A DNA stretch of 64,000 bases, taken from contig CAJINV010000020.1 in the NCBI GenBank assembly GCA_905178155.1, forward strand, positions 558,001 to 622,000. The letters are read 5' to 3'. The position numbers were made by a program, and so were the translations under genes. The DNA comes from Amoebophrya sp. A120 (taxonomy: Eukaryota; Protista; Dinoflagellata). Below, piece after piece: positions 1-57,204 of the stretch. Every line of letters starts with the position of its first letter. Positions within the stretch are counted from its first letter, which is position 1. The notes beneath the pieces were generated by a model that worked only from the letters and a program-made list of their open reading frames with translations, was not told the DNA's origin and ran no database searches.

Positions 1-1433
1 AACGTATCTTCACGCAGGACTCGCCGCGGAGCGCCGGGGCCGCCGCCGCGGGAAGCTGGATTGGGTATAAGTACTTACTCTCACAGCTCGTATGGGTGGC
101 AATTTAAATTCTGCAACACATTGCGGTTCGTCGTCTATCGAACCTTCTATGTACAATTTCAGGATCAGGTCACCTGTACTCGAGGCCGTGTTCTTGTTTT
201 GTTGATAAGTAGTTTTTGGAAGCCACGTTGTCGTTGAAACACGATTTGACGAAAACGAAAATCGAAACCAATTCTCCAGTTCTGTGGCTGGCGCGAGCCT
301 TGGCGCGAGCGTTGCCTCCACGACCGGCACAGCGGCCGCCGCGAGCTACAGCGCCACCGCGTCCGCGCACTTTGGGGCCGCGGCGTACACTATCGAATGC
401 AAATATGTCTGGGTCTGGAAACTTGTGATGCTGAATGGTCGTGATTGACTGCGCCTCAAAGTGCAGTATAGCATGACAAATGTTTCATACGCTTTGTCAT
501 GCGCAGAACGCATTACAAACTGCGCTTTCATTGCATGACGAAATTCTGGCGCTTTATTTGCTGCTTATGCATTACAGATTTTCATTACGAATGCGAAACA
601 TCCAATACAGGTTCAACCTTTCCAGACCCAGACACACTTGCATTTGATATACACGCTCGGGGCGGTGGAGGGCGGGTCGATCGCCACCAGCATCTATCAA
701 ATGCAAATATCCCTGGATCATGTCTGGAAGGATGCAACTTGTCATGCTGTCCTTGGATTCGAAAAAAATCTGTATTGCGTAAGCACCAAAGAGGCATCTA
801 CTTCATGAGGCCCTGCCTCAGAAAATCTGTGATGCTACCGCATACATCACAGACGTCATGGGTCATACAAAAGCTGCATGACAAGTCTTCCCATCTTCCA
901 GACCTCCAGACACATTTGCATTTGATAGCATCCTTGCCGCCACGTCGCTGGGGGCGGCCGGGGCCGTGGTTGGCGCGGGTATCCTCTGCAAAAGTAGCGT
1001 ATTCGTATTGCAATCATGCATTACAAATCTTTTTGTTAAGTCAAATCCGCATTACAAATTTTCTTTCTCATGCGGAGGGAATTTGTAATGCATTTATACG
1101 AGTACGATACTTTTGCAGTGTATAGCGGGCGCGGCGCTGCTGATCAAGAACCACCTGCTCGCGCACGAGGCCGGTAAAGCAGACCGGACGAGCCAGTACT
1201 TGGAATCCGCTCTACACCTGTTCGAGGACTCCCAGGATCCGTTTGGGCACCTGGACGTCATCCTGGGCTTCGACGATGTGGAAGAAAATCGTCAAGCCGC
1301 GCCGAACACCAGTACAACTAGCGAAACTTCCGCTCCTCCGCAAGTGGCGCTGGGCTGGTACGCGATACCCATTTCGCCCGCGGAAGCTGAACGGAGCCAC
1401 AACACAGGGGCAGCTGCACAACCTGGTGGTTGA
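1..1433 (+). CDS. 5'-partial gene, Ala/Gly-rich hydrophobic (glycine-zipper-like) protein; exons ~1-64, 280-390, 655-694, 933-979, 1130-1433
   Basis: One GT-AG intron (65-279) and three introners. The spliced frame is open: ...SWIGSVAGASLG...AAAYTLGAVEGGSIATSILAATSLGAAGAVVGAGAALLIKNH...PGG*. Confidence 0.7.
391..649. mobile_element. Introner element, family A
   Basis: TIR tatcgaatgcaaatatgtctgggtctggaa ... ttccagacccagacacacttgcatttgata; direct repeat tacac at 386-390 and 650-654. Confidence 0.9.
695..927. mobile_element. Introner element, family A
   Basis: TIR tatcaaatgcaaat ... atttgcatttgata; direct repeat gcatc at 690-694 and 928-932. Confidence 0.9.
980..1124. mobile_element. Introner element, family B
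   Basis: TIR tatcctctgcaaaagtagcgtattcgta ... tacgagtacgatacttttgcagtgtata; direct repeat gcggg. Confidence 0.9.
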
Positions 1434-2146
1434 GCTGCAAGTTATTGGACGTCGTTCTCTCTGTCGATAGAAATAATAGAATGGAGTTGTATAAAAATGC
1501 AAATGGCTCGCATGATCATCGATGTACATCTGTGTCGAAAGAAGAGGCACGACTAGGTTTTCTTGTGACCACCTCGAGTCGACTTTTTCTTGATTAAGCA
1601 GTGCACAGTGAGCACGACAGACATTCCTGCCAGTCAATCGCTTATCGTCCATCCAATGTTGCGTCGTCAACGTATCGTACATGGTATTTTTTGTTGCAGA
1701 AACCATAAAGAACATGCACATGGCTTCAAGTATGCAATTCGTTCGTAGGAGTAGGGCAAATATTTGCAGCGTCGCGATGAATCGTATATATTCGTTTCCG
1801 TTCGTGATAGTGATTGACGTTGACAGTGAGCTGCCTGCGTGCCCAAGGAAGATACTCATACGGATGTGTTCCACAACTATTGCAATCCTAAGAAAGTATT
1901 TTGTATTCCACATTTATCCATACCACAGGATCTTTTGAATTTCTTACACTTGGGCTTTGTACAAGTAGTTCAGGATTTGTACTCTTCTAGGTTTCACCTC
2001 CACCACCTCGCTCAAGCATTGTTTCTTGGTTTCAGTCTTTCCAGGGTCGATTGTTTTAAGTCCTCGGATTCGGAAAATCCTCGTGATATACCAGCCCGTC
2101 GAACCTGCCGTCATCGTCATTGAAGGAGGGCACTCACATAGAAAAC

Positions 2147-5206: not shown

Positions 5207-5865
5207 CAGGAACACGTTTTTTCTGATCGAGAATTACAGTTAGTGTTAGATAGAACTATGAGGAAAAACAGGAGTCCTGTTTTCGTTTCACTGGAGAGTT
5301 GCAAAAGTAACATATACCTTCCCTTGAGACGGACCCGCGCCGTAGTCTAGTTGACCAAGCTGGTCCTGCCGCCCAAACCTCATCAATACAACTCCGGGAG
5401 GTTTTTCATAAATTCGAATGTGCGCTTCCACAATCCACATTATGACGCAGAATAAAAATCATGATGATGAACTAAAGCTACTCTCCTAGTTGCGCTCTGA
5501 TGTGCTCGATCAGACAAACCGATGTGGATCTATTAGCCAGGCAAGAATCTGAATCTTTTGCTAAGCCAATGCCATTTCAGCTATAATAAAAATACTTACG
5601 TAACTCCGTGTCGAAGAGGAGAATCCAACGCGGATGTGGCAAAGCATTTAAAAAATGTGTTCGTGATAGCCGCCTTTCTGCCAGGCCTAGATCACTTTTC
5701 GTTTTTTGCGGCCCACAGTTTTCGGTATCAGAGGATCCACCCGAGGATCCAGCTGTGTTCTGCAGCAAAGATATATTCATCCTGTACTACCTGTTCCTTT
5801 GTTGCGACAACCAACCGGGGCTGCTTGTAGTTGTACCTAATGCAACATCTTGCAACTGTAGCGTC

Positions 5866-8690: not shown

Positions 8691-9074
8691 GCAGGCTGGT
8701 GCTCCTGTTCAAAGTACTTAAGTGCTATATAATGCAGTGATATTCTTCGCTGTGAGAAGCAACCGGCTGTTCATCTACTTGTGCTGCGTGCTGAGGACGA
8801 GGAGCTGTGCGGCTCCGAAGGCTTATGAACCATAAAGCGCTTCCGTAGACGAGTGAGGCGGAGATCATGTAGAGGACGTTGAGGTAATCATACTAGGAGA
8901 CTAAGCTGCGACAGCACCAACCGCAGAACTAGCTGCGCTCGTCCATGATGATACTGAGTTTTACGCTGTTGTAGTTTTTGCACGGCACCGCCAGCACATT
9001 CTTGTTCACGCCGCATCAAGGTCGTCTAGCATTGATTTGTTCTGAAGGGTCGCGACGAGGATCGAAAAGAGACG

Positions 9075-12036
9075 ATGACAGCGCCCGCCTTCTCGCGCAG
9101 AATTTTCGACTGGCGCCGGCTCCGCGCAAAGGCGGAGCGGTTTCAGGCGGAGATGAAGTCTGGCGGACTTTTTACCCAGGAAACGGGCACGACCGGTAGT
9201 GCAAGAACCAGTAGCCCCCGCGTAGTACTACAAAGAACGCCGCCACGGCAGAAGTTCCAGTTGCCGAAGATGAGGGTTTACACGCACTCCTCCTACACGA
9301 TGCCCCTGCCCGCGAACCACCGATTCCCGATGCACCGTTACAAGGCGGTGCACGCGCACCTGGCCGAAATTTTGTCGACCAAGGGCGCTGCGTGGACGGT
9401 TCCACAGGAACTACTCGAAAATGGCACGGGAGGCCATGCAGCTGCTTTCAGTGGTCGTGAAGTCGTTGAAGATGAAGAGGAAGACCGCAACGCTGCGACC
9501 CTGCGGCGCGCGCTCATGTCCCCGTTGACTTCGTCCGTAGTGGAGGGCCGCGACTTGAAAAACGCAGGAACTACTACGCTTTCACCGGTAGAAGAAACAT
9601 GCCCGCTCGACGTAGTTCAGGGGCGTGAAAGAGATCCTGCTGCACAACTGCGAGAAGCGCTACCCTCCCCAGACGCGCTTCTCCGCATCGACACCGATGC
9701 GCGGCTTGCGACGCGCGAGGAGGCCGAGCTGATCCACGAGAAAAGTTACATCGACGCGTTTGAAGCGGGCGAGATCCCCACGCGGGCGCTCGGATTTCCC
9801 TGGTCGCCGGCGCTGGTGGAGCGCACCTACCGCATTCTGGGTGGGACGCTGGACGCCGTCGAGGACGTGCTGCTGCAAACAGGGCTGAAGAGGTTCAGCT
9901 TGTTGGGAGATCCTGTTGATACTACAGGAACTACAAGTCTTCACGAAACGAGGCGAGATGAACAAGCCTCCTCCTCCTTCTTCTTTGCCGGCGGCAACCT
10001 GGCCGGGGGAACCCACCACGCGTTTCCTGGCTCGGCGGAAGGTTTTTGTGTATACAACGATCTGGCGGTGGCTGCGCGCTACGCACAGGAATTGTTATTG
10101 GCTGTTCAATATGCATTGCAAAAGTATCGTACTAGTATAAATCGCAATACAAATTTTTCCAGAAGAAAGAATCGAATTTGTAATGCTGATTCGGCTAAGA
10201 AACAAGATTTGTCATGCATGATTGCGATTAGTTTTAGTACGAGTACGATACTTTTGCACAGGATATTCAACATTGGGACGAAGGCGAAGGTCGTGGTGGA
10301 GGAAATGAAACAAGAAGTGGAGACGATGAGGATGAAGCGCAAGCGTTTTGTCGAAGGGTACTTCTGGGAGGAAAAGGAGGACGACCAAGAGCAGCTGCCG
10401 CACCAACAGAGGGTGCACAATCAGAACGAAAAAGCATGAAGATGTTGACGAAGAGGAACAAGAAGCCACAAAAGTTACAGGTGGTTATCATCGACGTGGA
10501 CGTTCATCTATGCACTGCAAATGCATCGTACTCGTAGTAAGTATTGCAATACAAATTAGCTCAGCATGAGAAATGGAATTTGTCATGCTGATTTAGGTTG
10601 AAAAAGAAATTTGTCTTGCATGACTTTGACTGCGATTAGTACGACTACGATGCTTTTGCGCAGGATATCATCAGGGCAACGGCACCGCTGCCTGCGTCGC
10701 GGAAGACCCGTCGATTTTGACCTTTTCCCTGCACTACGAAGAGCAAATACAACTTCATGTCTGGGTCTGGAAAGTTGGAACTTGTCTAGTAGGCTAGCTT
10801 TACATACATAAACGTAATTCCTGAGTGGAAATCAATATTTATATTGCATCTGAAAACCAACAAAAGTCGCAGGAGCCTCTTCTGTGACGCAGTTTCTGTA
10901 TCTGTTTCCTTTCTTTGTGGACTGCCTGTGCTTTGTGGACCGCCTAAAAAGTTTTAGCGCTCTGCATAAAATGAGAAAGCGTTCTGAACAGAAGTTGTCA
11001 TGCTGGGCTGCTGCTGCATTCGGAAGTGTTTCCGTCATCCACATTTTTTGAGCATCACAGAATTCCAGACTCCAAGACGTATTTGCATGTGATATGCACG
11101 CCGAGCGCAACTACCCTTTCGGCGACCGGCGGCGGACCAGCGACGTGGAGCGCAACGTGGACAACACCGTGCGGGAGCGCGAGTATTTGCTCGCGCTGCA
11201 GGACGGACTGCGGGAAGTGGACGACAAACTCGCCGCGGTGGGTAAAGCGGGAGGCACGCTACTAGCAGATGATGGAAAAAGTGCGACCCCTGGTGCAGGA
11301 GATCAAGTACAACAAGAACAACCGCAGCTGCTCGTTCTCTTCCAGGCAGGTGTGGACCCGCTCGCGGAGGACCGGTTAGGGAAGCTAAAACTTTCCCGTG
11401 GCACTATGAAATGCAAAAGCATCGTACTAGTAGAAATCGCATCACAAATTTCCTCAGCATTACAAATTTGTAATGCTGATTTGCCTTGAGGAAGAAATTT
11501 GTAATGCATAAGGGCAATTACTACGAGCGCGATACTTTTGCACAGGATAGGGACCCTGTGGAAACGAAATCAGCTGGTGCTCGATTGGGTTCTACGCAAA
11601 AGTTCAAACGAATCTCGCTATTGCACACGTATCAATGAAGTTGTCCGGTCAAAAATTGAAATACGAAAAGTATTTATGATCTTTCAAGTTGAAAGAACAT
11701 GTACATGATGATGATCACGGAGCTGTAAAAAATTCTATATTTGATGCGTTCTACTTCGTGCCCCTCTGCACACCACCCCGTGAAGGTTCAATGAAAGGTT
11801 CAATTATGATGATGATGATGATGATGATTCTTGATCTCACCACGCAGAAGTCTTGGAATTTTTACGAATGCTGCGATAGTAGTTTTGCATAAGTATACCT
11901 CCGACGGAAGAACGCGCCAGTGGTGATCACGATGGGCGGAGGGTACTCTCGACCAATCGACTTCTCGGTGAAAGCCCATTGCGATGTGTACCTGCAAGCT
12001 GCGGCGGCAGCCTGGGGGTCGTCGTTTTCGTTATAA
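9075..12036 (+). CDS. Zn-dependent histone deacetylase-family protein (HDAC11/AcuC-like)
   Basis: Spliced motifs HRFPMHRY, AGGTHHA..EGFCVYND, IIDVDVHQGNGT, FSLHAERNYPF, FQAGVDPLAEDRLG and ITMGGGYS. Four introners plus one degenerate intron (~11589-11895, exact borders unclear). Confidence 0.9.
10110..10265. mobile_element. Introner element, family B
   Basis: tatgcattgcaaaagtatcgtac ... gtacgatacttttgcacaggata; direct repeat ttcaa. Confidence 0.9.
10509..10667. mobile_element. Introner element, family B, splitting the HDAC DVHQG motif
   Basis: tatgcactgcaaatgcatcgta ... tacgatgcttttgcgcaggata; direct repeat tcatc. Confidence 0.9.
10735..11094. mobile_element. Introner element, family A (diverged)
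   Basis: tacgaagagcaaatac...gtctgggtctggaa ... ttccagactccaagacgtatttgcatgtgata; direct repeat tgcac. Confidence 0.85.
11405..11549. mobile_element. Introner element, family B
   Basis: tatgaaatgcaaaagcatcgtac ... gcgatacttttgcacaggata; repeat ggcac/gggac. Confidence 0.88.
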
Positions 12037-12798: not shown

Positions 12799-14693
12799 AT
12801 GGACGCGGCTTCGACCGAGCTGTGGATCGGCGTGGGTGTTGCCACAGCGGTGGTGATACGCACTGCAAAAAAATATCAGTCTGGGTCTGGAAAAGTTGTC
12901 CAGCACCATCTTATTGAGGTTTTTTGGGGACCACTACTATCTTCCCCACGTGTGACGCTGTAGACCACAGTCGCAATTTGGCTATGGCAAAATTACCCGG
13001 GATGATGATGATATTGGACGATCTTCTATGCAGCTACACAGATAATTTTCGTCTTAGCTCGAAGGACGCATGATGCGCATCTTCTTCACATCCAGACCCA
13101 GAGCACATGATTTTTTGCAGTTCATATTTCGCGGTAGTAGTTGGGTATCTTTTGTTCTTTCACGACAAGGCTGGCACTGCTCCCCTCCCTGGGAAACTTC
13201 TGCAGAGCGGAACGTTCCAGCTTCCGTTGGTAAATTTTGACGACGAAATATCCAAGAAAAAAACTGTGTAGGTGTAACTTTGTTGGAAGAGCGGCGTCAC
13301 AAATTCGCTTCGCATTACGGGGAAGACCTGTCATGGGCAGCTAATACGTGAAAACACGTATGAAAGTAGCCTAATATGTATGACGCAGACTGACCGGGCT
13401 GGCTGCATGACAAGTGTTATCAGATTTGCATTTTCTGCATCACAGGCTTACACTCGTCACACAGTTTTTTTCTTGCATACGAGAGTTTGGTCGAGGAACG
13501 GCAGCGGGATTTCATGCGCACCTGCGCGGCGCAAAAGGACTTGCACTTTCTGGTGCTGAAAAGAACAATAGAATACGGGAAAAATGAAGGGAAAGTATTA
13601 AAAACCGAGCTGAAACTGCTCGAGCTCAAGGACACGAGTTCCTTTGCCGCCTGTATGACTTCCTTGCGGGAAGCGGACTTCTTCCAGACCGAGGGCGCCA
13701 AGCTATTCCAGGAGAGCGGCGTCTACAGCTTAGTGTCTGCCACCACGCCGTTCGACTTCAGCATGAAATTTTATCAACTGTAAATATGTCTGGGTCTGGA
13801 AGGATGCAACTTGTCATGCTAAAAAGTCTGGACTGGTGTGAAAAAATCTGTGTTGCATGGTTATCAAAAGTTGTCCACTTTTGACCAATTTGCGAGGAAG
13901 CCTCTCAAACGGGCTCGGCACGACAGAGACCTCACAGAGTCTGTCATGCTTTGTCTCGCATTCCAGGCCTCATACGTCATGCAAAACCTGCTCCTGCATG
14001 ACAAGTTTACACTCTTCCAGACCCAGACATATTTGCAGTAGTTAGTTCCACCGGTGGACATAATAGCATGTTTTTAATCTCTCTCTACATAGTGCATCCA
14101 CGTAGTTCTCTTTTCTTTTCTTTCTTCAAAAAGTTCAAGTCGTTCTCTTCCCTGTGCTGTACCATGGTCTTGTTTCCAGACAAAACACCAGACATATTTG
14201 CAGTTGATAAATTTGGCGTCATACCCATGTTCCACGACCCAAAGTACGTGATCCTCTATCACGAAGACACTAAGCAGTTTCAGGTATATTTTGTAATGAA
14301 GAAAATTTTCTTTTTTTCATTTGAGATTTCACGTGGGATTCGGATTGTGAAAAAACTCATGATATGAATGTAGTGAACCTTCATGATGTAGTGAACAATT
14401 TGATTCGACTTTCGAATGCGCTACGGTTGCTTCCTTGTGACCATCAAAAAAGAAAATATTGTGTTGCAAAACTATGTAACAATTATGAAACCCAGATACT
14501 TTGGGGTGCGTGGATCAATGACAAAGCCGAGCCGGTTCCCGCCAACAAAAGATGGCCGTTTTTCGTGTGGTACGTGTCGCAGCCGCTCGGAATGAAGCCG
14601 CCAGCGGAAATCTCCTTTTCGTATGGAGCAATAAGAAATACCAAGGACAGTGTGATGAAAAACATTGAGGTGGTGTGTGCCGAGATGTTCTGA
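12799..14693 (+). CDS. Hypothetical membrane-anchored protein; three introners and one GT-AG intron (14284-14495)
   Basis: Spliced frame is open: MDAASTELWIGVGVATAV..AVVVGYLLFFHDK...NFDDE|SLVEERQ...SMKF|GVIPMF...QFQ|ILWGAW...CAEMF*. Confidence 0.7.
12857..13126. mobile_element. Introner element, family A, with decayed direct repeat
   Basis: tacgcactgcaaaa..gtctgggtctgg ... ccagacccaga..ttttttgcagttcata; flanks ggtga/tttcg; frame restored by removing element + 5 nt. Confidence 0.75.
13249..13479. mobile_element. Introner element, family E
   Basis: tatccaagaaaaaaactgtgt ... acacagtttttttcttgcata; repeat cgaaa/cgaga. Confidence 0.85.
13772..14209. mobile_element. Introner element, family A, with a second internal right end
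   Basis: tatcaactgtaaatatgtctgg ... ccagacatatttgcagttgata; direct repeat aattt; extra right-end copy at ~14015-14044. Confidence 0.85.
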
Positions 14694-15806: not shown

Positions 15807-18800
15807 ATGTCGCGCGCAGCTGCGGTAGAACGGATGTTTACTAAGTTAGGAGTCGTGGTGTATATTACCGGGATACAACTTCTAGGGATCTTCATTTTAG
15901 CTCCTGAAGTACAGGCCGCACACATTTTGCTTCCCGAGGAGGAGCAGCCCGTGCAGAAGGGGAAGGTATGGGTTTGGCCCCCAATTGAGGAGATCGAACT
16001 CGGAGGGCACAATGCGACGTCGCAGCACTGCATCTGCACCAGCCCAAGGGTTCTGGAGGAAAAGGAGCGGCAGGTCCAGGCCATGTTGCAACGACGAAGC
16101 GCCCGGCGAGGCAGAGCGCTCGTCCGAACAACCGAAGAACGGCTAGTTCCCGCCGCGAGGACAAGGACCGCTAGTACACCCTCTGCAAGAAAAATACCAA
16201 GTGGCGCAGCAGCTGCTAGTGCTGGACATGATATGGTGCCAAGTGGGCGACCAAGTGGGGACGAGACCATTAACAAAGAGCATTGCTGTCCGTCTCCTGG
16301 TCGCACCGGTGTTACTGGGGATGTTGAACAGCAAGAAGTAGAAAGAGGCTTTGGCGGAATTTCTTCAGGTGGTCAACATGATCGCGCTGGCACTGAACAG
16401 AATTTCACACGACCGGCCCGCCACGACAACTCCTTGCTGCGTCAGATAATTCCTATTCCTCCGAGAACTACAGCGGAGAACGAGAACCACACTGAGGATC
16501 CTCTATTTCGAGCGAATAAACCCAGCGAACATTTACACATCATTTCTCCGCGCCGGGGCGGCCGGGGACATCAACAAACTGCCGGGGTTGTAGCAGGAGC
16601 ACCAGCAGGTCTCCTGCATGGGGCGCAGAACTACGACCACACTCCGCGGCCGGAGTCCGTATCAGAGGGAAGACCGAACCTGAAAAAAAGTAGCATTCTG
16701 TCGCTCGAGCACCGCGGCTTTGGATCCTTTGGTCCTGCTACTTCATCCTCTCAGCACCTTTTTGAACAAACAAAGGACCACGGTTTCTTCGGTGACACTA
16801 CTGCTGCTCCCAGCACGGCGCTACCCAGTTGCGTCCTGTCCAGTGCTTGTGATCATGCCTTAAGTGAGTGCAAGCGGCGACGTACTTCGGATGCGGACGC
16901 GGGGGCGGGCGCCGCAGCTGGTGGCACTACAGCCGCGACATCGCAGGCAGCGTTTGGATCCTCCACTACTTCGGCCGCCGCTGGGGTCGCTCCGCCGATT
17001 CACTTCTGTCTTGGTGAGCACGTCGGGGACCACAACACGGGTCATGTTCTGTTGCACCAGCACATGCACAGAGGTGCTGCTGGTCCACCCCGTGGAACAA
17101 CTCAATCATGCTCCACATCCACAATGTCGGCTCTGGGACACGAAATGCACCATATGCACCTATTTCGGGGCTGCTCTAGTGCCTCTCATAATTCCCTTCG
17201 AAACGAATCCAATGCGATGTCACGCGACCTGTTCGGACTTAGTAGCACCGATCCAGCACCCGGCGTTCACCTAGCTCTACAGCCGGCGGATGAGATTCAG
17301 AATAGTGCGCTGCAGCTTCGTACTCCATCACAACAGCATCAGCACCAGCAACGTCCGGTCGCAACTTCCACTACTGTACCAATACCACCAGCTGCGGAGC
17401 GGGGGCACCAGTCTGCTGAGGATCATTTGCAACTACAAGATCTGTCCGAGGAACAGGAGCGTCGCCTGCTCGCGCGGAGCCGGTCACCGCTTGGGCAGCC
17501 AAATGATAATCATGCTTCACAGAGCACTAGAGAGCAAAAGTCTTTTCTCAATACCGGGGCTATTATTCATCATGATCTTCTTCCACAGAGTTCCTCAGAA
17601 AAGGTAGGGCCGCCACACCACCACGCGCCGGATGATCATCATCGCGCTGGCCACGAAGCAAGAGCTGCAGCGGCACCAGAGAAGAACTACAACTACCCGC
17701 CGAAAGGTGAACATGCAGCTTATGCTGACGCAGCTTCCGAAGTTGTAGATGAGCAATCGCAGGCAGACGTAGAGATGTTACCGGCGGCCGCGTCTTCACC
17801 TGAACAGATTCCTGGGGTGGAGGTTCAGGACGAGCCACAAGGACGGGAGGCGCTTGCTGCGAGTACGAACAAGGATCATGGGTGCCACTTGATTTCATCT
17901 CTGCGCCGCGCCGATTATTGCGCCCTCAACATCGCTAGCGCTTCTTCTGGACACCCACCGATGTTGGCTCACCCCGGCTTCCTGATTTCATGCAAAAAAA
18001 ATCGTGGTAAAAATGTTAATGATCGTGGTGACAAGGTCGATGATCTGTCGTGCCAGCAGGGACAACATAATTTTCGTGCGCAGTCATTCCCTGTCGAGGT
18101 CGAGCAGGACGCGGATGTTGATCTTGAAGCTCTCCGAGCTGTGTGTGCGGCAGCTGCACTTACTAGAAGTAAATTGACGGACCGCGGCAAGATGAATGCC
18201 ACGACGGAGGAAGGTCCTCCTGCTCGACCACGTTATTCGCGACCTATCAAATGTAAAAATGTCTGGGTCTGGAAGATTGCAACTTGTTATGCTAAATCTG
18301 AAGCATGCAAAAATCTGTTTTGCATGCTTGGGTTACCCGGTCGGCAGAGCCGATCCACAACGAACGAATGCTTACCAAAAGCTGTCCACTTTTGACCTAC
18401 TCGAGAGGCAGTTTCTCATGCAGGGTAGGCATGATGGAACTCGCACAGAATCTGTCATGCTATGTCCTACATGCCAGACCTTATATATGGGTCATGGAAC
18501 ACCTGCATGACAAGTCTGGCACTCTTCCAGACCCAGACATTTTTACATTTGATACGACCAGAGGAAGTACAAGTAGAATGGGCCGCGAACAAGCAACTCT
18601 GGCTGAATTCGTGGCAGTTTTTGGATCAGCAGATGGATGCGAGAGCGGCCCGCCACTTTCCCACGAAGGACGACCACAGCCATAACATCAGGCCGCTGTA
18701 TAAGCTGCTCCGCTTCGGCCCCCAGCTGGTGCTTGGGGCCACCGCGTTGCCCGACAACGTACTGGCCCGGGAGGCCAAGGCGGAGATGCGGCGGGGGCTA

Positions 18801-21716: not shown

Positions 21717-22009
21717 AAAGTTGTAGTGTCCCACCTACTTCCCCAGAAATGCTTGGAACGTGGTAGACGCGCACTTCCAGAATGCCCGCTGTTGCAGTCG
21801 TGCCTTGTTTATTTTGCATAAGATCTACTTACCCAAATCTTTGCTATTTTGCTGCACTGTGAATTTGATGTGTCCCTGGTGCTGGCATACGCATACGCAA
21901 GATGGGACGTCGTGTACTAGCTTCCTTTCGGGCAACATCAAAGCTTTGCGCTACACATGCAGCTTCCAAGTTTGTTTCGGGTAAGTAGTTTTCCTCTCGA
22001 AAAGCGGAG

Positions 22010-44980: not shown

Positions 44981-45534
44981 CAAATGAAAATAAATATAGG
45001 ACGCTCCATCACAGCCTCTGTTCAAGTAGAACATCAAAGCAAGGGCAAGAACTTCTGACTCTTGTTAATTGAGATTGAAAGTAAAATTATCCAAAAACAC
45101 TTGCCTTCTTGTCCATCTTCATCCTTGCTTCTTCGGGTTCTAGGCTACTACATTTTTCTGATCTTCATGATGATGATTTGTACCAAAATTTACAACCAAA
45201 AAAGCTGTCGGACAGCGAGTACCAAATCGTGGAATTGTATGAAAACGCCGAACGCTATCACAATCGTGTGTCATAGCGATCGCATTCCGAATAGACTGAG
45301 ATGAGAAAGCGTCCCCTTGAATGTGGTCAGTTTTATTTCATGCCTGCATGAAGAACATGAAGATCAACACATTACTTGTGTGCCTCGGTGTGACGCGTTG
45401 AGCAAAAACTTGTACCGCAGAAGATTGCTGCACTTCTACTTATAGCCGTGTCTTTATGTTTGTGAATGTGATGCAAAGTTGCGCCGCAATGTGAATAAAC
45501 TAACAGTGGTAGCGTCTATTGTCGTTGCGATAAA

Positions 45535-46272
45535 GTGGCTATTCAAGTGTGGTGCTCCGAGAAGCGCGATTGGATTCCCTGCGGCCGCGACTACATCCGT
45601 CATGACTCCGACTTGTGCGCCGACGGTAGTATTCTCGACTGGGTCACAAAAAATCCGAAGATGAACGAAAAAACAAAAAGCCAAAACAGCAGTACGTCAG
45701 CATCTTCATCCTCATCTTTTTCTACAACTGCTTCAAGAAGTGCTGGTGCTTCAGTTCTTCACAACAAGAACTCTTCTGGTCCACCTCCTGCTCGTCCTCA
45801 CGGTTCACAGGAGGCCGCAGTTGTAGAACCTGCTTCCAGTTCAAGTTCTTCTACTTCTTCCTTTTCGACATCTTCTCCGTCGCAGAAGGAGCTGATGAGG
45901 AAGCTGATGAGGTCGCTGTACGAAAGCCCGCGACTGGTCACGAAACTCGAGGAAAAGTTTGAGAAGCTGAAGGCTGCTGAGGCGGCCGGAGGGGGGCAGG
46001 AGCAACATTTGTACAAGGGCTGGTCTGTCCGCCTGATGGACCACGTGATCAAGCAGTACAAAAAAGAGAAGCCGCGGGACTACCAAATGGCGACAGCAGC
46101 GGAAAACCTATACAAGCACTGGAGACACCACCCAGGCGCCCGGGCAGAGGTCGAGGCCGCGGTCGCGAAGAAGGAAAGTTTGCGCATCGCCGGGACGACG
46201 TTCTCTTTCGAACAGTGCCAATTTGTACTGCGCGAAATCGACAAGAAGGAGGGAAAAATGTTGGAGAACTAG
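45535..46272 (+). CDS. Hypothetical protein, Ser-rich linker then helical charged C-terminus; start uncertain
   Basis: 245-codon ORF with GC3-rich codon usage like neighbouring genes. Confidence 0.6.
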   Translation: MAIQVWCSEKRDWIPCGRDYIRHDSDLCADGSILDWVTKNPKMNEKTKSQNSSTSASSSSSFSTTASRSAGASVLHNKNSSGPPPARPHGSQEAAVVEPASSSSSSTSSFSTSSPSQKELMRKLMRSLYESPRLVTKLEEKFEKLKAAEAAGGGQEQHLYKGWSVRLMDHVIKQYKKEKPRDYQMATAAENLYKHWRHHPGARAEVEAAVAKKESLRIAGTTFSFEQCQFVLREIDKKEGKMLEN

Positions 46273-47020: not shown

Positions 47021-50000
47021 ATGTCTTCGCTTCGCCGTTGGTTTCAGTTTCTTTCCCTTTGCACGAGTTCTTATGCCTTGATGTTCTTTTCAGCGTGTAG
47101 TGTTGCTTTCTTGTTCGGCGTAGCCACGCCCTCGACCAGCGCGGCTGCAACAACTCCGCCGTCGGAGAAAGGAGCAAGCACGGCGAAAAGTAAGAACACC
47201 AAGGAGATCAAAACTCCAGTAGTGGAGGACCACACGACCATCCTGCCCGACCTGGTCGCGCACCTGCGCAACGGCAGATGGGACAAGGCGCAGCAGGCCG
47301 CGCAGCGGGTGCACGCGCTGAAGAAGAACAAGCAGAAGATTGTGCAGGTGGTGCAGGACAGTGTGGCGGACACGAAGAAAAAGGCCGATGAGCTCCTGCT
47401 CTACCTAAACCGGCAGTTTGCCATCCCGGACGAGCTGCCCTGCGCGTCCCGGTGGGCGCAGAATGGCACGCACGTGCTGCTGCAAGTGCGGTTCGGAAAG
47501 TCGTGGCAGGGGCACTCCGCCCACTGGGGCCAGCGGTACAGCACGAAGGGCGGCGAGGGCTTGATCGAGCAGAACGCGCAGGGAATCCAGGAATTGTTGA
47601 AAATGGACCTGACTCCGATCAGCGGCAAGACCAACCACGCCTTCAGTCTATCCATCGTGGGGCAGATCGGCACCAAACGCTACAAGTTCGTGGTGCCCGA
47701 AACGGAGCTCTTCGCGGAGGTGCACAGCCGGTTCCGGCACGAGATAAGCTTTCGCAACGCGAAGGGGTCCATGCAGATGAGCCGGGGGGCGCAGCTGCCC
47801 GAGCTCAAGCTGTTTTTCCAGAAGAAATATGCGTTCGCAAAAGCATCGTACAACTCGTAGAAATTGCAGTCATGCATGACAAATCTCTTTCCAAATACTT
47901 AACCTGAAACAGCATCATAAATTCCATTTTTTTTCTTTCTGAAATTTGTGATGCGATTCATACGTAGTACGAGCATGCCTTTGCTGTGCATAAGACGGTC
48001 CGGAACTTCTTCTGGTCCCGCTTCTCCAAGGAGGAGCATCTCGTCCAAGAATACCTCGCCTCCACGAGCACCACGACCACCACGACGACGACAAAAAAGA
48101 AGAAGCGAAAAGGGAAGCAAACCACCGCCACGACCACCACGACCAAGTCACCGATGCCGCTACCGGAGTTTTCCATCGGTCTCCTCGACGTTGTGGAGGA
48201 CAATGTGGAGGAGAGCTTGGACCTCAGCGGCATCACGCCGGACGTGCACCTCGCGCGAAACAGCGGGCCCGTGTGCGCACCTCTAATCTACTGTCCGATG
48301 ACAGACATGTGTGTGGAGAAGTGCGAGCTGTGTACTAGTACTAGTAGCACAACAAGAACTTCTAGCACGTCGAACAAAGTGTTCCAGGGCGTGTGCGTGC
48401 CGAAGGAAAAGCCGAAAGTGGACTGCAGCAAGGCGAGGTTTGTGGATTGGAACCTGCAGGAAAAGAAGATCGCTGGCGTTCTCATGCTCGACGATGTTTT
48501 GGGCCGGGACGACATTTGGACCTCGAAGAGCGCGGTGGTGCGGGAGGGACAAACAACAAGGAGTTCTAAAGAATCACAAAAGGTAGAAAAGGCGGTAAAA
48601 CCAAGCCTCCTCCGTCTGGACACGCACACGCAGCACTTGTCTCGCGAATGGCTGCTGCAGACGGCGCAGTTCTCGCAAGAACAACTACCTCCGAAGAGCA
48701 GTGCGAACAGTGCCACTACAGAAAACGAGCAGAACCGTCTCCACACTGCATCTTCAGATGACAGGACCAAAGCCGGTCATGAAGTTGTTGTACTAGGCCA
48801 AGAGCAAGACACTAAGAAACTTCTCGTCCCTCCGTACGTTAGCCGAATCGGGCTGGAGGTGGAAAATGTTCCCTTCGTCAGTGTGGATCTGGAATTTTTG
48901 GAAGACGACCACCGCGTCTCTTGCGAGAGCATCCCTGTCCACGACCGGCTGGTGATGCAGCTCGGCATCGTGGAGCTCAACGCCTTCCACGACGAAAACC
49001 CGTTGGCGGACGCGCTGACGGGCAACCTCACCCTGCACGTCTCTGCTATGGAAGCGTCAGGTTTGAAATCGTCAAAGTTGAAAGAATTTGTAATGCATAA
49101 AATGCATGACCCGAGGCGCGTGTGTTGCAGAGCAGGCAAGTGAGGCCGACTGTAAGCCTGTTTGGGGTGACAGCTCGAGCTGCTAAAGTAGCACGAGAAA
49201 ATCGCTCTTCTTTGCCTAAACAGCATGACAAACTGGATTTAGGGACCGCCGAAATTTGTCATGCGCCACTTGAAAACTGGGCTCCAACTAGCATCCATTT
49301 TATGCATGACAAATTATTTCAACTTTGTCGATTTCAACTCTGACACATCCATATCTGACCGAAAAAACACGCACGGTGTTCACGTCTACTTCTCGCGCGG
49401 GGGGGCGGACGCCACGAAGATTGAGCTGCCGGAGCCGGAGAGCTTGTTCATCTTTGGGGATAAAGATGATGATGGGGAGAAAAAAAGTGAGCAGGAACAT
49501 CAAGCGCTTGAGGCGAAACAGCGGCAAGTCCAAAACATGCTCCTGCACCCCGAAGCGGCGGCGGCCGTCCGCGAAGACCAGGAGCAGCAAAATTCTGCGA
49601 GGAACTCGGCGGGCGACCAGTCTTCACCTCCCACGTGGCAGTACGCTCCCGGGGGCATGGATACCAGCGGGAGTAATTATGCGGGGACGAAAAAGGGAGG
49701 AAAAATGAACAACAGTAGCCCAAAAATTATGCCCGCGTTGCGATTCGAGCTCGTCGATAATGAAGCTGATGAGCAAGCAGATCGTAAAAATGCTTCTCCT
49801 CGCCGTCAGGACGTCCCGCAAGCTTTCAGCTTCTCCGGGGGAAAGGTGTCCTTTGTGTCAGAGGAAACCGACACACGCGGTCTCGGCTCGGCGACGCTCA
49901 CGTTCCGTCTGGAAAACGTAACCTTCGCGCGGGGTGCGACGCACTGGACGGCTTTGCCGTACCACCGAGACGTCGAGGGCGTGAACGAGCGCTCGGTCGC

Positions 50001-51667: not shown

Positions 51668-54600
51668 ATGTCCTCTACGTCGACTTTCGACCAAGGCGTG
51701 GTCCCGGGCAGCGGGGCGACCCAGACGACGTCCTCAGGCCCTCCTCCATCGGGAGGCGGTGGTGGAGCGACTCCGCCCGGAAACTCCAATTCCTTCCAAG
51801 GCGAGCAGCCGACACTGTTGACAACCCCTGGAACCTATGCATTGCAAATATGTCGGGGTCTGGAAACTTGTGATGCAAGGAAGGGAATGGTGCGCACATT
51901 GTAATGCGCTGCCCAGCATGACAGGTTTTTCCGTGGTTCTGAGTTGCGTAATCCGCATTAGAAACTGCGTTTTTGCGTGGCAGACCAGAGGAGCTCTTCG
52001 CGGCCATGCAGTACAAAGTTCAGAGTCATGCCAGACTAGCATGATAAATCTCGCAGTCTCCCAGACCAAGACACATTTGCAATGCATACAACATCGGCGC
52101 CGTCGAGAAGGTCCATGTTGGGGGACCCGACCCGGTCGGGCCACCCAGGGCACTTACTGCGGGACAGCAGTAATGCGATGGACAATGACAAAGATTTTCT
52201 GCGCAGATCACGCTCCTCCGCCAGAAACCTGGCAGTCGTCCATGTCATGTCGAATGCCAGCGAGGGTGTCGGCAGTCTGCCCAGCTTTCAGCCCGGGTTG
52301 TTAAACAGCACCACGGTGGGGGACCATCATCATCTTCACGCAGGAGACCACTTGCATAGTCCTCCAGTGAAATTGACGCCGCGGGAGCGCATGCTGGCCG
52401 TGATGGACGGGAAGGTGGTGCAGACGGTGATGACGTTGCTCACGGTTTTTGCCCTGTATGGTGACGATTTGAGGATGAAGTTTTTCTTTCTCCGGCACGA
52501 CATTGGGTTCTACGTGCTGTACACAATCACCTTTTTTCTTTTTTCCGCGGAACTGACCATTTTCTCCGTCTGCAAAGAGGATTACAAGTACAGAGAAAAT
52601 GTTTTTGTTTCATTCTGATTTTGCTGTTGAAGATGTTGGACCATTATGATTTTCGCGAAGCTCAAGAATTTTTTCATCAGAAGATTGATCATTCCGATGC
52701 CGATCTCTCATACATTGTCACGATGAAAAATTTCTTCACAAAAACGTAAATCAAAAGGTACTCTTTCTTCTTCTGGCTCGACATGGTCGCGTCCATGAGT
52801 ATCCTCCCCGACATTAAATGGGTAATGGATTTCGTTTCCGGCCTTTTTGACGACAGCCAGGGCGGGGCCGGCAGCGGGCAAACGGGCGTCGCGCGCGCGG
52901 GGCGCGCAAGTCGGGCCGGGACCAGGGCGGGAAGGATTGTTCGTATCCCACGAAAAAAGTGTTACAGTTACACATTTGCTGTAGCTTCAGCATCACAAGT
53001 TTTCTCTGCATGACAAAGAAAACTTGCAATGCAAAGATCATAAGGGAAAACGGGAAGAAAACGAGGCTCCAAAGCATTTCCTGCATGAGAAAGGTTGTCT
53101 GTGTTGCGGATCTTGCAACACAATGTGTAACTGTAACACTTTTTTCTTCCCATAGTTCGGTTGATTCGTCTAGTGCGGTTACTCCGCGTAGTGAACATTG
53201 CGAAATTCTTTTCGAAGGAGGAGCAATCCGCTTTGGATAAGATGAAGTCCAGCAAGGGCGGCATCACCCGCGAGGGGATGCAGCACAGCATGAGCAAAAA
53301 TGCTCAGACTAGTAGTCCCGGGTCGAATAGCAATGAGAAGCGCGTGGAGGCGAGCCGGTTGGGGAAGATTCTGTCCGAGCAGACCACGCGTACCGTGATT
53401 CTGGGCGTGCTTTGCATGATGCTGGTCCTACCCATGATCGAGTTGGAAGAGCCGAACCGTACCCCGACCTTCGGGCTGGAGCAAATTTTCTGGATCGGCC
53501 GCAGTTCCTGCAGTCCGTACGCGGATTTCGTTTCCGCGGGCCTGCAAAGTGACGCCGCTTTGCAGTGCAGCACGACCATACCCACCGCGACGGCCAACGC
53601 CACCGTGTCCGCCTCCACCTGGATGGCGGTGGAGGGGTTCAGCTATCTGCTCTACGCGTACACAGAGCAATCTAGGTTCTATTTGGGCGAGCTCACGGCC
53701 GCGCTGGCCCGACCCATTTTGTACATGGCGGTGCCGAACACGCTCGGCGCGCCGATCCGCTCGCTCGACTACGTGGTGACGAAAAGGTGCGACAACAACG
53801 GAAATCTAGAGTACCCCTTTCTCGGCTGGCAAGAGGACTTTGACGCGCAGGGGGGATGGGTAAGGAGAGACACTGCAGCATAAGAATAGACACTGGGGCT
53901 TCTGGCATAGAATTTCAGTTAGAAACGACATTGAGGACTACATCATTGATGACGCTGAAGTTATGAATATGTTGCTTTCAAAATGAGCAAAAAATAAACT
54001 TCACACTTGAACTCAAAGACCGCCGATTGCCAAGCGGCGCGCGCCCAGGGTAAGTGCTGCTTATCAAATGTAAAAGTGTCTGGGTCTGGAAGAATTCACG
54101 TTTGTCATGCTTGTCTGGCATGACTCTTAAATCTGTCATGCACGTTACCCAAGAGCTCCGTTTTTCTGTGCTGCAGAAGCGCAGTTTGTCATGTAGACTA
54201 GGCAGCACCTAGGAGCTCAGAAACTTCCTTGTCATGCTGAGCCAGCATTTGTAGCCTCATCATGAGACGCCACCCAGCATCACAAGTTTCCAGACCCAGA
54301 CATTTTTACATTTGATACTGCTGGCAGAGGCACAAATACTGTGGTATCGGGGAGGACCAGGAGAACTGTCCCTGGCGGGATACAGAAATGGAGGACGTTA
54401 TGGATGAGTCAGGATCGAAATCGACAAAATCGAAAAATTTGTGATGCATGAAATGTAGGCCACTGAAGGCCTGTATTGGGGAGCAGGCAATAAACGAGAC
54501 CGATTGTAAGCCTGTTTAGGGGTAATATACAATGTGCTGCCAGACGAGTAGCACGACAGGAGCAGTCTCATTTGCCCAAACAGCATGACAGACTGGCTTT

Positions 54601-56482
54601 GGGTGCTCCCGATAAAACTTGTCATGCGCCCCTTGGAAACTGAGACTCCAACTGCCATCGATTTTGTGCATCGCAAATTTTCCGACTTTGACAATTTTGA
54701 TTCTGACACTTCCATAGCCGTGGCTTTTTCGCCGGCGGAAACCTGCCCAGACGGAAGCTCCGAAAAACCGACGGAGCTGAGCTCCTCCTGCACCCACGTG
54801 ACGGTCTATGCGAAGGTTATATGCATTGCAAAAGCATCGCACTCGTCGTCGTCGCTTGATTTGTAGTAGTGGTGCAGGAGCATGACAAATCTGGCTTTCA
54901 ACTTGAATCTGCATGACAAGCTCGAGTTCAGCTTTTGCGGTGAATAATTGCTGAACCGGAGCAAGACGGAAACGACCGCGGAGTACTCCATGATCCAAAC
55001 GACGTTCATTGTCTTTCTCCTTTATGCAATGCAAAAGCATTGTACTAGTACAAATCGCATTTACAAATTTTCTCAAGAAGAAAAATGGAATTTGTAATGC
55101 TGTTTTACCTTTGGAGGAAGATTTGTCATGCATATTTGCTGCAATTAGTACGAGTACGATACTGTTGCACAGCATATCCTCGGCATTGGGGCGATGATGT
55201 TCTCGAAAGACACCCAGCAACTGGTCATTTCCCCGATCGAGAAGATGGTGAACATAGTGAAACAACTCGCCGATGTATTCAAGAAAAAAACGTTGTTAGT
55301 GTAAATTTGTGATGCTCAACATGCAAGATGATTGCTTCTGTCATGCTTGGCATGCGTCGCAGGGTCCATTAAAGGCCTTTTTCACGTACTATCTGCGCAT
55401 GACAGGTTTTTGCTGTCATGTCAGACAAACTTGCAATGCTGTTCCTCCAAAAAAGTTACACCTACAATGTTTTTTTCTTTGATACGATGACCCCTTGTCC
55501 AAGCCGAGCACGCAATCTGGCGGCTACATGGATGACGGGGAAGACCACACCTCCGGAGCTGCACATGCCGCTGCGGCGCAGAAGAAGCAGCAGTCGTCCG
55601 GGAATTCCCAGCTTGAAACTAACATGCTGGAGACGACGATCCTGAAGATCGGAGGGCTCCTCCAGGTCGGGTTCGGGGAGGCGGGCGCGCAGATCATAGG
55701 GAAAAACATGAGCAGCCAGGATGGGGAACTCAACATCCTGATTCCGGGACGGATATGCAGATTGCAAGAGCATCGCTTAATCGTACTGTACGTAGAGTTT
55801 GCATCATCTTCACAGACGTTTGTGAATAGGAAAGCTACGGAATTTGTGATGCGGAATCGCGTATAAAGAGCACATTTGTCTTGCCAGAGCGCACAATCCA
55901 ATTTATATATAAAACTACCAATGCGCTACTTTTGCAATGCATAGCGGAAGATCTACGGCATTTTTGGTTTTTGCTTCATCCGCGAATTCACCGACACGAC
56001 CGAGTGCTTGCTGGAGGAGGTGATGGTGTTCGTCTATCCTCTGTGCAAAAGTAGTGTATAGGTGCTAATTGGAATTTTTGAAGGACAGCATGACAGATCT
56101 GGTTTCCTTCGTTTTTTCAGAATTACAAATCGAATTTTTCCTACTTTTGAAAAATTGTGATGTTGCAGCTCGCAGTAGTACCCGAGACAACTTTTACTTT
56201 TGCAATGCATATCGTGAACAAGATCGCCCGCATCGTCCACATCTGCGTTCACGAGTGGGCGGGCGCGGCGAACAAAAACATCGGGGACTCCTTTTTGTTA
56301 ACCTGGATCGTGAACGATCTCGAGGAGCAGAAACAGATGGCGCGGTACGGCTACGACAAGAACGAAAAGATGCAGGACTTGAGCGACAAAGCCTTGATTT
56401 CCTTCGTCAAAGTCATGGCGGAACTCCGACGAGCCTCCGACCTACGCGCCTACACCAGCCACCCCAAGATTCAGCAGAAGTT
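51668..56482 (+). CDS. Ion-channel-type (AC-alpha-like) class III nucleotidyl cyclase, 3'-partial
   Basis: Spliced motifs ALYGDD, FFFWLD, RAGRASRAGTRAGRIVRLIRLVRLLR (S4), PIEKMV, KIGGLLQVGFGEAGAQII, IPGRK..IFGFC, ANKNIGD. Nine complete introners and GT-AG introns 52588-52757 and 53860-54018. Remainder lies beyond the insertion starting at 56483. Confidence 0.88.
51836..52088. mobile_element. Introner element, family A
   Basis: tatgcattgcaaatatgtcggggtctgg ... ccagaccaagacacatttgcaatgcata; repeat gaacc/caaca. Confidence 0.87.
52944..53154. mobile_element. Introner element, family E, splitting the S4 helix
   Basis: tatcccacgaaaaaagtgttacagttacacatt ... aatgtgtaactgtaacacttttttcttcccata; direct repeat gttcg. 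Confidence 0.92.
54062..54317. mobile_element. Introner element, family A
   Basis: tatcaaatgtaaaagtgtctgggtctggaa ... ttccagacccagacatttttacatttgata; direct repeat ctgct. Confidence 0.92.
54399..54716. mobile_element. Introner element, family D
   Basis: tatggatgagtcaggatcgaaatcg ... gattctgacacttccata; repeat gacgt/gccgt. Confidence 0.9.
54820..54946. mobile_element. Introner element, family B (decayed)
   Basis: tatgcattgcaaaagc ... gcttttgcggtgaata; flanks ggtta/attgc; frame restored by removing element + 5 nt. Confidence 0.72.
55023..55176. mobile_element. Introner element, family B
   Basis: tatgcaatgcaaaagcattgtac ... gtacgatactgttgcacagcata; repeat tcctt/tcctc. Confidence 0.88.
55276..55484. 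mobile_element. Introner element, family E
   Basis: tattcaagaaaaaaacgttgt ... acaatgtttttttctttgata; direct repeat cgatg. Confidence 0.9.
55754..55943. mobile_element. Introner element, family B (diverged)
   Basis: tatgcagattgcaagagcatcgc ... gcgctacttttgcaatgcata; repeat acgga/gcgga. Confidence 0.85.
56035..56211. mobile_element. Introner element, family B (diverged)
   Basis: tatcctctgtgcaaaagta ... tacttttgcaatgcata; repeat tcgtc/tcgtg. Confidence 0.85.
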
Positions 56483-57204
56483 TATGGCGCTCTCAAACGT
56501 TACATTCTCAACTGTTACATGATTTTTGGGGAGAAATATGCCCTAAGGAATATCGAAATCACAAATTTCATTTTTTTATAGTTTCAATTGGTGCTTTCTC
56601 TCAAGTCTGTCATGCTCGCGCTCATTGTTGAAACGAAGAAGGAAAGCGAGGAGAGGAGTAGGTAGGCAAAATAGGACTCAGAGGGCGCTGGCGCGCAGGG
56701 CGTTTGCGTTTCTACGAACGTTGCCCATGGTTCGTCTTGACACTGCAGCTCTGCATCCTTTGAAAAAGAATGGGGCGCCCCAAAACTCAGAAAAAAAAAG
56801 CCCTTCTCTGCACCATGCGAGAAACCCTGCGCGCCATTTGAGGAATATGTGCTAGCGCGCACAGGCCGGCAGGACAGATCGAAGAGGAGAGACGAGGAGA
56901 GAGCAGGCCGAAGTAAAGAAACAATCGCTACGGACATGGGCTAGTCAAGGCGGATGGGAGGCGAGGCCCCCCGCGAAAGCGGGTTGGTTAGCAGAAAAAG
57001 GCCCAGCAGCGCCACACCCGCGTGCAGGGGTGCGGCACTAAGAGATGTACACACCCAGACCCACCCCGAAGGGGCCGATGCCCCGCACTGTCAGTGGTGG
57101 CGCAGCGAGTTTACGAGCAGCCCCGGCGCCCCGGCAGCGGCGGGGAGAAGCGCGAACCAAAACAGGCGTGGCCGCCCGGGGGGCCGAGGCTTCAAAAAAG
57201 CTGT

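Follow-up and report, generated by a model that had tools for sequence, protein, structure and literature searches.

Introners of the window and their internal motif

This work concerns a short sequence motif, TGTNATGC, that recurs inside the introners of the dinoflagellate Amoebophrya sp. A120. The DNA analysed, called the window throughout, is a 64-kb stretch comprising positions 558,001 to 622,000 (64,000 nucleotides, nt) of the forward strand of contig CAJINV010000020.1 (assembly GCA_905178155.1). It holds elements that are bounded by terminal inverted repeats (TIRs) and flanked by target-site duplications (TSDs), and at least 22 of them are skipped exactly by RNA-like contigs at TSD/TIR borders that are not of the GT..AG type. 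The motif is a conserved, repeated cis-element of these TIR-bounded introner transposons.

Elements were defined by a scan for TAT...ATA arm pairs together with an inverted-repeat search, and families were grouped by their arms. The window contains 28 such arm pairs, and element size ranges from 130 to 440 nt (132–443 nt by individual element). Family F1 has the TIR TATCGAATGCAAATATGTCTGGGTCTGGAAA and the arm ...TGYAAAWATGTCTGGGTCTGGAA, F2 the TIR TATCCTCTGCAAAAGTAGCG... and the arm ...TGCAAAAGTATCGTACT, F3 the TIR TATGGAGGTGTCAGAATCGAAATT, F4 the TIR TATGAGAGTACAAAACCCC, and F5 the TIR TATCCAAGAAAAAAACTGTG... and the arm TATCCAAGAAAAAAAC.... The original prediction had called the TIRs of the families unrelated, which is overstated, as 50 element ends share the tip T1 A2 T3 ... 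T8 G9 C10 A11–A14 (T49 A48 T45 at positions 1–3 and A37/42/47/32 at positions 11–14). The elements have the features of miniature inverted-repeat transposable elements (MITEs) or other non-autonomous TIR transposons: TIRs, a TSD, many dispersed copies and no coding capacity. Both insertion orientations occur, with five forward and five reverse copies in F2 and three and six in F1. An Rfam scan of the window returned no family. The arms of one F2-type pair at 7510–8334 (18/24 matches) are separated by 825 nt and enclose no motif copy; the pair may be an old composite or consist of the halves of two elements.

From four RNA-like runs, contigs were placed on 4001–24000 and 44001–64000. Together with each element the contigs skip one copy of the flanking direct repeat of 3–6 nt, and 0–6 letters at the joint fit both sides. 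TSDs are mostly 4–5 nt long, and TTCAA, TCATC, TGCAC, CCTGG, GAGGA, CTGCT and CGATG were read directly. Ordinary GT..AG introns, three among the joints listed, are skipped in the same contigs, and after intron removal long open reading frames (ORFs) are found on the + strand only, e.g. 1,199 amino acids (aa) at 19002–23486 and 1,100 aa at 46931–50906. From this we infer that the contigs are RNA, that the joined forms are spliced and that the genes lie on the + strand.

The 22 listed introns have a mean length of 250 nt and are removed at non-GT/AG borders. Their inverted repeats start with TAT followed by about seven less conserved nt and at least three A, and direct repeats of 3–5 nt lie over the exon/intron borders. 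The accessible text of Farhat et al. 2021 (PMC7789003) describes A120 introners in the same terms, with inverted repeats made of TAT, 7 variable nt and an A-run, 3–5-nt direct repeats, non-GT/AG borders and a mean length of ~240 nt, in an organism with no U1. The window elements thus share with the published introners the start of the inverted repeat, the border repeats, the type of border and the mean size (~240–250 nt), and likewise occur in many families without coding capacity. The inverted repeats of other Amoebophrya strains begin otherwise, with TTA-RR...G in A25.

Counting both strands, the window has 79 exact matches to TGTNATGC, as compared to 7.24 ± 2.83 expected from 100 dinucleotide-preserving shuffles; the largest count in any shuffled window is 14 and none of the 100 reaches 79. 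TIR-bounded elements (7,238 nt) hold 71 of the 79 matches. Specifically, 48 lie in the non-canonical introns skipped by RNA contigs (5,498 nt) and 23 in TIR-predicted elements (1,740 nt). Shuffled element sequences give 2.4 ± 1.5 matches with a maximum of 7 (300 shuffles), and the excess is therefore not a matter of base composition. The three GT-AG introns (636 nt) have no exact match, and the remaining 56,126 nt of the window have eight, i.e. 0.14 per kb, which is about the chance rate. Enrichment over background, on which the original prediction depended, is thus found in the elements and nowhere else in the window. An unbiased count of 7-mers in element interiors (25 nt trimmed from each end) leads to the same word: the top words by number of elements are all sub-words of AAATTTGTCATGCA, and GTCATGC, which 22 of the 30 elements contain, counts 46 copies inside and 9 outside (52-fold enrichment).

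Alignment of the 79 sites extends the motif to a 13-nt unit, AAAYTTGTNATGC, followed by A, T or G. A is found upstream of the core at positions −5/−4/−3 in 41/53/58 sites, and T at −2/−1 in 51/55 sites, the remainder being mostly C. The base after the core is C in none of the sites. The free position N inside the core is C in 45, A in 16, G in 16 and T in 2 sites. The word noted originally, (t)tgtNatgc, therefore has a real core and is shorter than the true unit.

Motif-bearing element copies carry one to five exact motifs, and both orientations occur. The motif-bearing introners skipped by RNA contigs are listed first, with the sign after each motif position giving its orientation:

10105..10265, + strand, F2 introner, TSD TTCAA; motifs 10179+, 10210+ (31 nt apart), sense only
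10504..10667, + strand, F2 introner, TSD TCATC; motif 10581+
10730..11094, + strand, F1-like introner, TSD TGCAC; motifs 10996+, 11052-
11403..11552, + strand, F2 introner; motifs 11439-, 11457-, 11469+, 11500+, of which 11457/11469 form a perfect 20-nt palindrome
13248..13483, + strand, F5 introner; motifs 13405-, 13437- (32 nt apart), antisense only
13766..14208, + strand, F1 introner with an extra right-hand segment, TSD AAATTT; motifs 13812+, 13942+, 13996-
22579..22852, + strand, F4 introner, TSD CCTGG; motifs 22622+, 22692-, 22745+
22896..23207, + strand, F3 introner, TSD GAGGA; motifs 22942+, 22990-, 23024+, 23056+ (the last two 32 nt apart), 23158-
45236..45535, + strand, non-canonical intron; one core match 45467+ with poor flanks
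47827..47996, + strand, F2 introner; motifs 47874-, 47947+
49042..49353, + strand, F3 introner with 67-nt arms; motifs 49089+, 49223-, 49257+, 49304-
51832..52089, + strand, F1 introner; motifs 51869+, 51900+ (31 nt apart), 51916-
54057..54317, + strand, F1 introner, TSD CTGCT; motifs 54103+, 54134+ (31 nt apart), 54230+, 54277-
54396..54718, + strand, F3 introner; motifs 54440+, 54583-, 54620+
54819..54950, + strand, truncated F2 introner; motifs 54880-, 54911- (31 nt apart), antisense only
55018..55176, + strand, F2 introner; motifs 55093+, 55124+ (31 nt apart), sense only
55271..55484, + strand, F5 introner, TSD CGATG; motifs 55308+, 55339+ (31 nt apart), 55397-
55750..55944, + strand, F2-like introner; motif 55845+ plus near copies
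56030..56211, + strand, F2-like introner; motif 56088- plus near copies

Further elements are predicted from their TIRs and have no strand assigned:

391..649, F1 element; motifs 424+, 471-, 495+, 510-, 569-; near copy 533
695..927, F1 element; motifs 740+, 828+, 876-
980..1124, F2 element; motifs 1018-, 1049- (31 nt apart), 1084+
18245..18554, F1 element with a 36-nt TIR (97%), not among the joints listed; motifs 18285+, 18453+, 18505-
25842..26112, F1 element; motifs 25890+, 26065-
30424..30569, F2 element; motif 30485-
52944..53154, F5 element; motifs 52990-, 53008-

Fifteen motif positions had been named beforehand. Fourteen are exact within 1 nt, the matches standing at 424, 471, 495, 510, 569, 22622, 22692, 22745, 22942, 22990, 52990, 53008, 55308 and 55339. 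The fifteenth, near 533, is GCATGACG with one mismatch, so that the 'about six' motifs ascribed to the first element are five exact copies and a near copy. Two further matches, at 60347 and 60431, lie past the end of the range given at that time. These are two well-flanked copies (gaaatcTGTCATGCg and aaaattTGTCATGCg) 84 nt apart, outside any defined element; RNA cover is lacking there, and the stretch 60347–60438 may belong to an element that is atypical or has decayed.

Conservation and spacing within and between families

Within families, local alignments give z values of 9–135 in nine of ten pairs; in the tenth, between two F5 copies (F5a and F5c), z is 2.0. Pairs from different families reach best local scores of 18–34, which is about the length of the motif, and these drop to 12–26 once exact motif copies are masked. 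After masking, 45 of the 56 between-family pairs have z values under 4, and the other 11 reach 4 or more with raw scores of only 18–26; inexact copies stayed in the sequences, and each z is based on 40 simple shuffles. The possibility that families are alignable along their length, and that the motif is simply inherited with the rest, had been named as the finding that would overturn the idea of a common site. The masked families do not align.

Motif columns, taken as the seven fixed core positions, are more conserved than the other interior columns in every family compared: 0.78 vs 0.64 in F1, 0.85 vs 0.65 in F2, 0.97 vs 0.88 in F3 and 0.90 vs 0.75 in F5 (Mann-Whitney p from 2e-5 to 4e-4 in each). 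The N column is conserved at background level. Consensus sequences have seven motif slots in F1, three in F2, five to six in F3 and six in F5, with both orientations in every family. The elements thus show one trait of subterminal transposase-binding repeats, a short motif that is repeated within the ends in both orientations and conserved above its surroundings.

The copies are also phased. Among same-orientation pairs up to 150 nt apart in the window, 11 of 28 lie at 31–32 nt, and these come from F1, F2, F3 and F5, i.e. four of the five families. Three turns of B-DNA amount to 31.5 bp. Inverted pairs in the window favour 47–48 nt when convergent and 34–35 nt when divergent. Two simpler accounts of the arrays were dropped. 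The internal motif is not the binding part of the TIR, since the two have only a CAAA stretch in common, and motifs read as the TIRs of a nested mini-MITE would leave the direct 31-nt pairs unexplained.

Independent copies were found by a metagenome scan with the F2-type dyad, which yielded at least 147 loci, nearly all on contigs of one assembly. Element copies, on more than 100 other contigs, are 77–88% identical to the window elements. The counts that follow refer to the loci listed. Outside the ascertained F2 elements they hold at least 373 further motif matches, and 31 of 162 same-orientation pairs up to 120 nt apart are again at 31–32 nt. Inverted pairs peak at 16 and 47–48 nt (convergent) and at 34–35 and 66 nt (divergent). 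Window and metagenome loci together give 196 pairs at 31–32 nt in 19 spacer classes defined by greedy clustering, and 16 of these classes (36 pairs) are non-F2. Of 41 TIR elements of ~11 TIR classes in the flanks of the loci, 39 contain the motif (for the 41 pairs, nine artefacts of adjacent F2 arms and two chance loci were left out). Classes seen in the flanks and absent from the window begin with TACATTCTCAACTG..., TATCCTGCGTAAAAACG..., TATCCACAGTAAATTTCC... and TATCCCCTGAAAATTAACC.... In 15 flank copies of F1 the conserved islands are the TIRs and GCATGACAGATTT, GCATGAGAAACTG, GCAATACAGATTTTT and GCATGACAAGTT. Some database matches were set aside as chance: the low-GC metagenome loci L088, L109 and L119, six dyad matches on viral contigs (a tandem repeat and phage iteron-like repeats) and 68 viral-contig matches to the 16-nt F1 TIR word, around which 55 kb contain two motifs.

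These data bear on the idea that all families descend from a single ancestor and that the motif is the slowest-decaying leftover of it, without present function. The common TAT-N7-AAA tips and the similar build do make common ancestry of a superfamily likely. However, neutral decay would not hold seven positions while N and the spacers drift, nor would it keep the 31–32-nt spacing across 19 spacer classes, and apart from the motif nothing aligns between families. We consider a functionless relic improbable.

Strand, position and removal from RNA

If the motif acted in the transcript, its orientation relative to the gene would be expected to matter. In the validated introns there are 29 sense and 19 antisense matches; five of these introns have sense copies only and three have antisense copies only. 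Consensus slots are intact to a similar extent whether they read TGTNATGC in RNA (31/66) or GCATNACA in RNA (27/63; Fisher p = 0.72, 129 slots), in a count that includes seven unvalidated elements for which a + strand host gene was assumed. Thus neither sense enrichment nor sense preservation, as expected of a strand-specific intronic RNA element, is seen. Position is not fixed either, because on the consensus maps the 3'-proximal motif copy has the sign '+' in F2 but '-' in F1 and F3. A branch-point-like (yUnAy) reading of GCATNACA was ruled out on these grounds, as there is no fixed orientation or distance to the 3' border, and it fails also because insertion into + strand genes occurs both ways (F2 5:5, F1 3:6).

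Removal takes place without the motif as well. Three of the 22 listed introns have no exact or one-mismatch copy and are nevertheless skipped by RNA contigs, which show removal and not its efficiency; an RNA element on which removal depends would be present in all of them:

11592..11901, + strand, non-canonical intron
12856..13130, + strand, F1-like introner with intact GTCTGGGTCTGGAA TIRs
21703..22004, + strand, decayed non-canonical intron, TSD CGG

The GT..AG introns that serve as controls, skipped by RNA contigs and without an exact motif, are:

14281..14492, + strand, GT..AG intron, cut +3
44974-45203, GT..AG intron
50043-50236, GT..AG intron

All three, in the stretches 14281–14495, 44974–45204 and 50043–50237, open with GTATA (GTATAT, GTATAA, GTATAG) after the allowed shift of the cut, and the organism may thus use GTATA as an extended 5' splice signal. 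In two introners, 22579–22852 and 51832–52089, a cut shifted by 1 or 3 nt reads CT..AC, i.e. GT..AG on the minus strand; the + strand ORFs oppose such a reading.

The strongest competitor of a role in DNA is a mark at the RNA level: an RNA-binding factor or a guide RNA would dock on the motif in pre-mRNA and aid the removal of introners in the absence of U1. All 19 motif-bearing validated introners listed are cut at non-GT/AG borders, while the three GT-AG introns are motif-free, and since each family consensus has both orientations, a sense copy is supplied whichever way the element is inserted. In RNA folds most nucleotides of the motif are paired, and the 8-nt UGU-led core is reminiscent of PUF-type sites. 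According to the accessible text of Farhat et al. 2021 (PMC7789003), U1 is missing and the splicing mechanism is unexplained. Against such a mark stand the three introners removed without the motif (removal efficiency is not read from contigs), the introns with copies in one orientation only, the lack of strand bias in counts and in slot intactness (47% vs 43%) and the family-dependent sign of the 3'-proximal copy. These observations weaken the proposal that the motif marks the element for removal, and we regard an RNA-level role, be it a mark or an enhancer of splicing, as rather unlikely, yet as a serious alternative. Its boldest form, in our view a little less probable still, is that the phased array is the platform of a dedicated factor that recognises all introner hairpins and permits them to be excised from transcripts exactly and without U1. 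If true, this factor would be an RNA-level counterpart of ciliate internal eliminated sequence (IES) removal, and the motif would be the long-sought common signal that lets ~30,000 introns without splice sites be tolerated in genes.

Raw reads and a large insertion deserve mention beside these results. In a 2026 run, approximately 76–77 raw RNA reads match the F1 right TIR at 54288–54317 only, with other flanks on both sides. Because the reads run into other flanks and the genes of the window are uncovered, another F1 copy elsewhere appears to be abundant in that RNA. In a second raw-read RNA run no reads were placed on the window stretch. The insertion splits one further F2 element:

30798..30921 (left part) and 44679-44712 (right end), no strand assigned, F2 element with TSD CCGGT round the whole; motifs 30839-, 30870-, 30905+

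The insert, 30922–44678, is 13.76 kb long, is bounded by a 10-bp duplication of F2 sequence and has direct repeats of 829 bp (30930–31758 and 43850–44678) that are 99.6% identical. Taking the 13.9-kb unit 30798–44712 with its F2 tips as an autonomous element was rejected because of the 10-bp duplication at the inner junctions, which indicates that the insert entered an ordinary F2 copy at a later time. An ORF of 1,863 aa in the insert (34757–40348) has no Pfam or PDB match; its atlas features match clusters with GIY-YIG and reverse transcriptase (RT) domains (0.91), weakly suggesting a Penelope-like element. A piece of an RNA contig begins exactly at 44713, and the whole unit 30798–44712 may be spliced out. 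Within the insert, at 33547–34787, a 58-nt inverted repeat (33558–33615 and 34720–34777, 81%) surrounds 1.1 kb with internal tandem-like repeats at 34219–34474. Inverted arms of 43 nt (98%) at 63584–63626 and 63759–63801 consist of short GAAAACTT/CCCGAAACTTT-like units, lie in a region of 64% GC (63584–63813) and are unrelated to the motif.

A candidate docking site and its counterparts in known systems

The reading to which we tentatively lean, judging from sequence features, is that AAAYTTGTNATGC may serve as a repeated docking site on duplex element DNA for a mobilising protein, either a transposase or its partner. An array of docking sites on duplex DNA fits best because the constraint is sequence-specific, indifferent to strand and phased by helical turns, and because the motif is dispensable for RNA removal. 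The common tips, together with TSDs of ~5 bp, point to a single type of enzyme for mobilisation. The accessible part of Gozashti et al. 2025 (PMC12130899) describes A120 introner families that are flanked by TIRs and have integrase-like ORFs. One mobilisation system would recognise the common tips and the array of internal sites, and the latter would correspond in function to the subterminal repeats of other DNA transposons. Lineages losing motif sites would cease spreading. Removal of inserted copies from RNA would rest mainly on the terminal hairpin and the direct repeat, not on the motif.

The original prediction was that a common trans factor binds the motif. Confinement to elements, the 13-nt unit, its conservation, the 31–32-nt phase and the unalignable families argue for a sequence-specific site of a common trans factor over passive inheritance. 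A transposase, one of the two factors then proposed, would fit the anatomy of the elements; no transposase was found in the ORFs scanned.

Several points weigh against a docking site for mobilisation. Neither a transposase nor a binding protein was identified, the ORFs scanned at 31–43 kb having no Pfam or PDB match, and the accessible text of Farhat et al. 2021 (PMC7789003) reports that no transposase was found in A120. Families also differ in the direction of their outermost motif, with inward TGTNATGC in F1 and F3, inward GCATNACA in F2 and an asymmetric arrangement in F5; if the role were strictly architectural, such variation would not be expected. Selection at the host level could account just as well for the higher conservation seen among resident copies. 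It is important to note that there are few copies per family in the window and that the metagenome sample was ascertained via the F2 dyad. Finally, in minimum free energy (MFE) folds of the RNA 81% of motif nucleotides are paired, as compared to 59% of the other interior, and 42% of motif nucleotides pair with another motif copy. As far as such modelled folds go, this pairing would also suit a hairpin or an RNA-level role.

The same folds, together with the favoured spacings of inverted copies, agree with purely structural modules, in which inverted copies do no more than pair into local stems, be it in RNA or in single-stranded DNA, and no sequence-specific reader exists. Such modules would leave unexplained why families that cannot be aligned have the same 13-mer and why direct repeats stand at 31–32 nt, and there are elements with one orientation only (10105–10265, 54819–54950). 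Moreover, the free position N does not co-vary in inverted pairs, the same N being found in 10/32 and 6/14 pairs against 0.35 expected, and hence pairing itself is not what is conserved. We find a purely structural role very improbable. A host protein related to chromatin, silencing or transcription could also bind the arrays in DNA and favour tolerance of the elements in genes. Orientation-independent features of the duplex type and helical phasing would suit such a protein, but outside elements the motif is present only as eight background-level matches in 56 kb; we give this explanation little credence.

A docking-site array of this kind has known parallels. The AAACGG hexamers of Ac/Ds, the 12-bp TNPA sites of En/Spm and the internal repeats of Tol2 and piggyBac are subterminal repeats that bind transposase. 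The introners have in common with them a short motif that is repeated inside the ends in both orientations, conserved and shared by non-autonomous derivatives. In the introners, however, the motif spans ~11 TIR classes and the whole element of 130–440 nt, with a sharp direct phase of 31–32 nt. Several spaced copies of one site are found also in the inverted repeat/direct repeat (IR/DR) ends of Sleeping Beauty-type Tc1/mariner elements and in the multi-site ends of Mu and Tn7, where spacing of the binding sites matters for the synaptic complex. Those sites measure 15–30 bp and have a fixed polarity to the tip, whereas the introner unit has 13 nt and a polarity that depends on the family. Paramecium IESs are TA-bounded, have a short TIR consensus and are excised precisely by a domesticated transposase. 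Like introners, they are transposon-derived genic inserts (TA...TA) whose precise removal leaves one flanking repeat. IES removal takes place at the DNA level in the somatic nucleus; in our case removal from RNA is indicated, as the contigs concerned skip GT-AG introns too. Among intronic sites for RNA-binding proteins, (U)GCAUG of Rbfox and UGUANAUA of PUF proteins act in one orientation and in single-stranded RNA. The likeness consists in GCAUGA within the commonest reverse-strand form of the motif and in an 8-nt UGU-led core with one free position; in contrast to such sites, the introner motif has no strand bias and introners without it are still removed.

The elements themselves are already published. 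In the accessible parts of Farhat et al. 2021 (PMC7789003) the signals described are the terminal inverted repeat and the direct repeat only, with no family-specific motif detectable in the inverted repeats, and the internal 13-nt motif, its multiplicity and the 31–32-nt phase were not found in the main or supplement text (supplement figures aside). There is likewise no mention of an internal motif in the accessible text of Gozashti et al. 2025 (PMC12130899) or of the preprint by Roy et al., and a search outside closed journals found no literature that joins the motif string with Amoebophrya or introners. The internal motif is thus not mentioned in, and in this sense new relative to, the introner literature searched.

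Amoebophrya-type introners are an extreme case of introns made by transposons, with tens of thousands of copies in hundreds to thousands of families, tolerated without a splice-site consensus in a cell without U1. Which enzyme spreads them and which signal removes them are the questions on which the motif may bear. As a 13-nt word with a strict phase, common to all families seen, it can be used as bait in DNA and RNA pull-downs and as a simple genome-wide classifier. Its binding protein, whatever that may be, is a prime candidate for the machinery that mobilises or removes introners.

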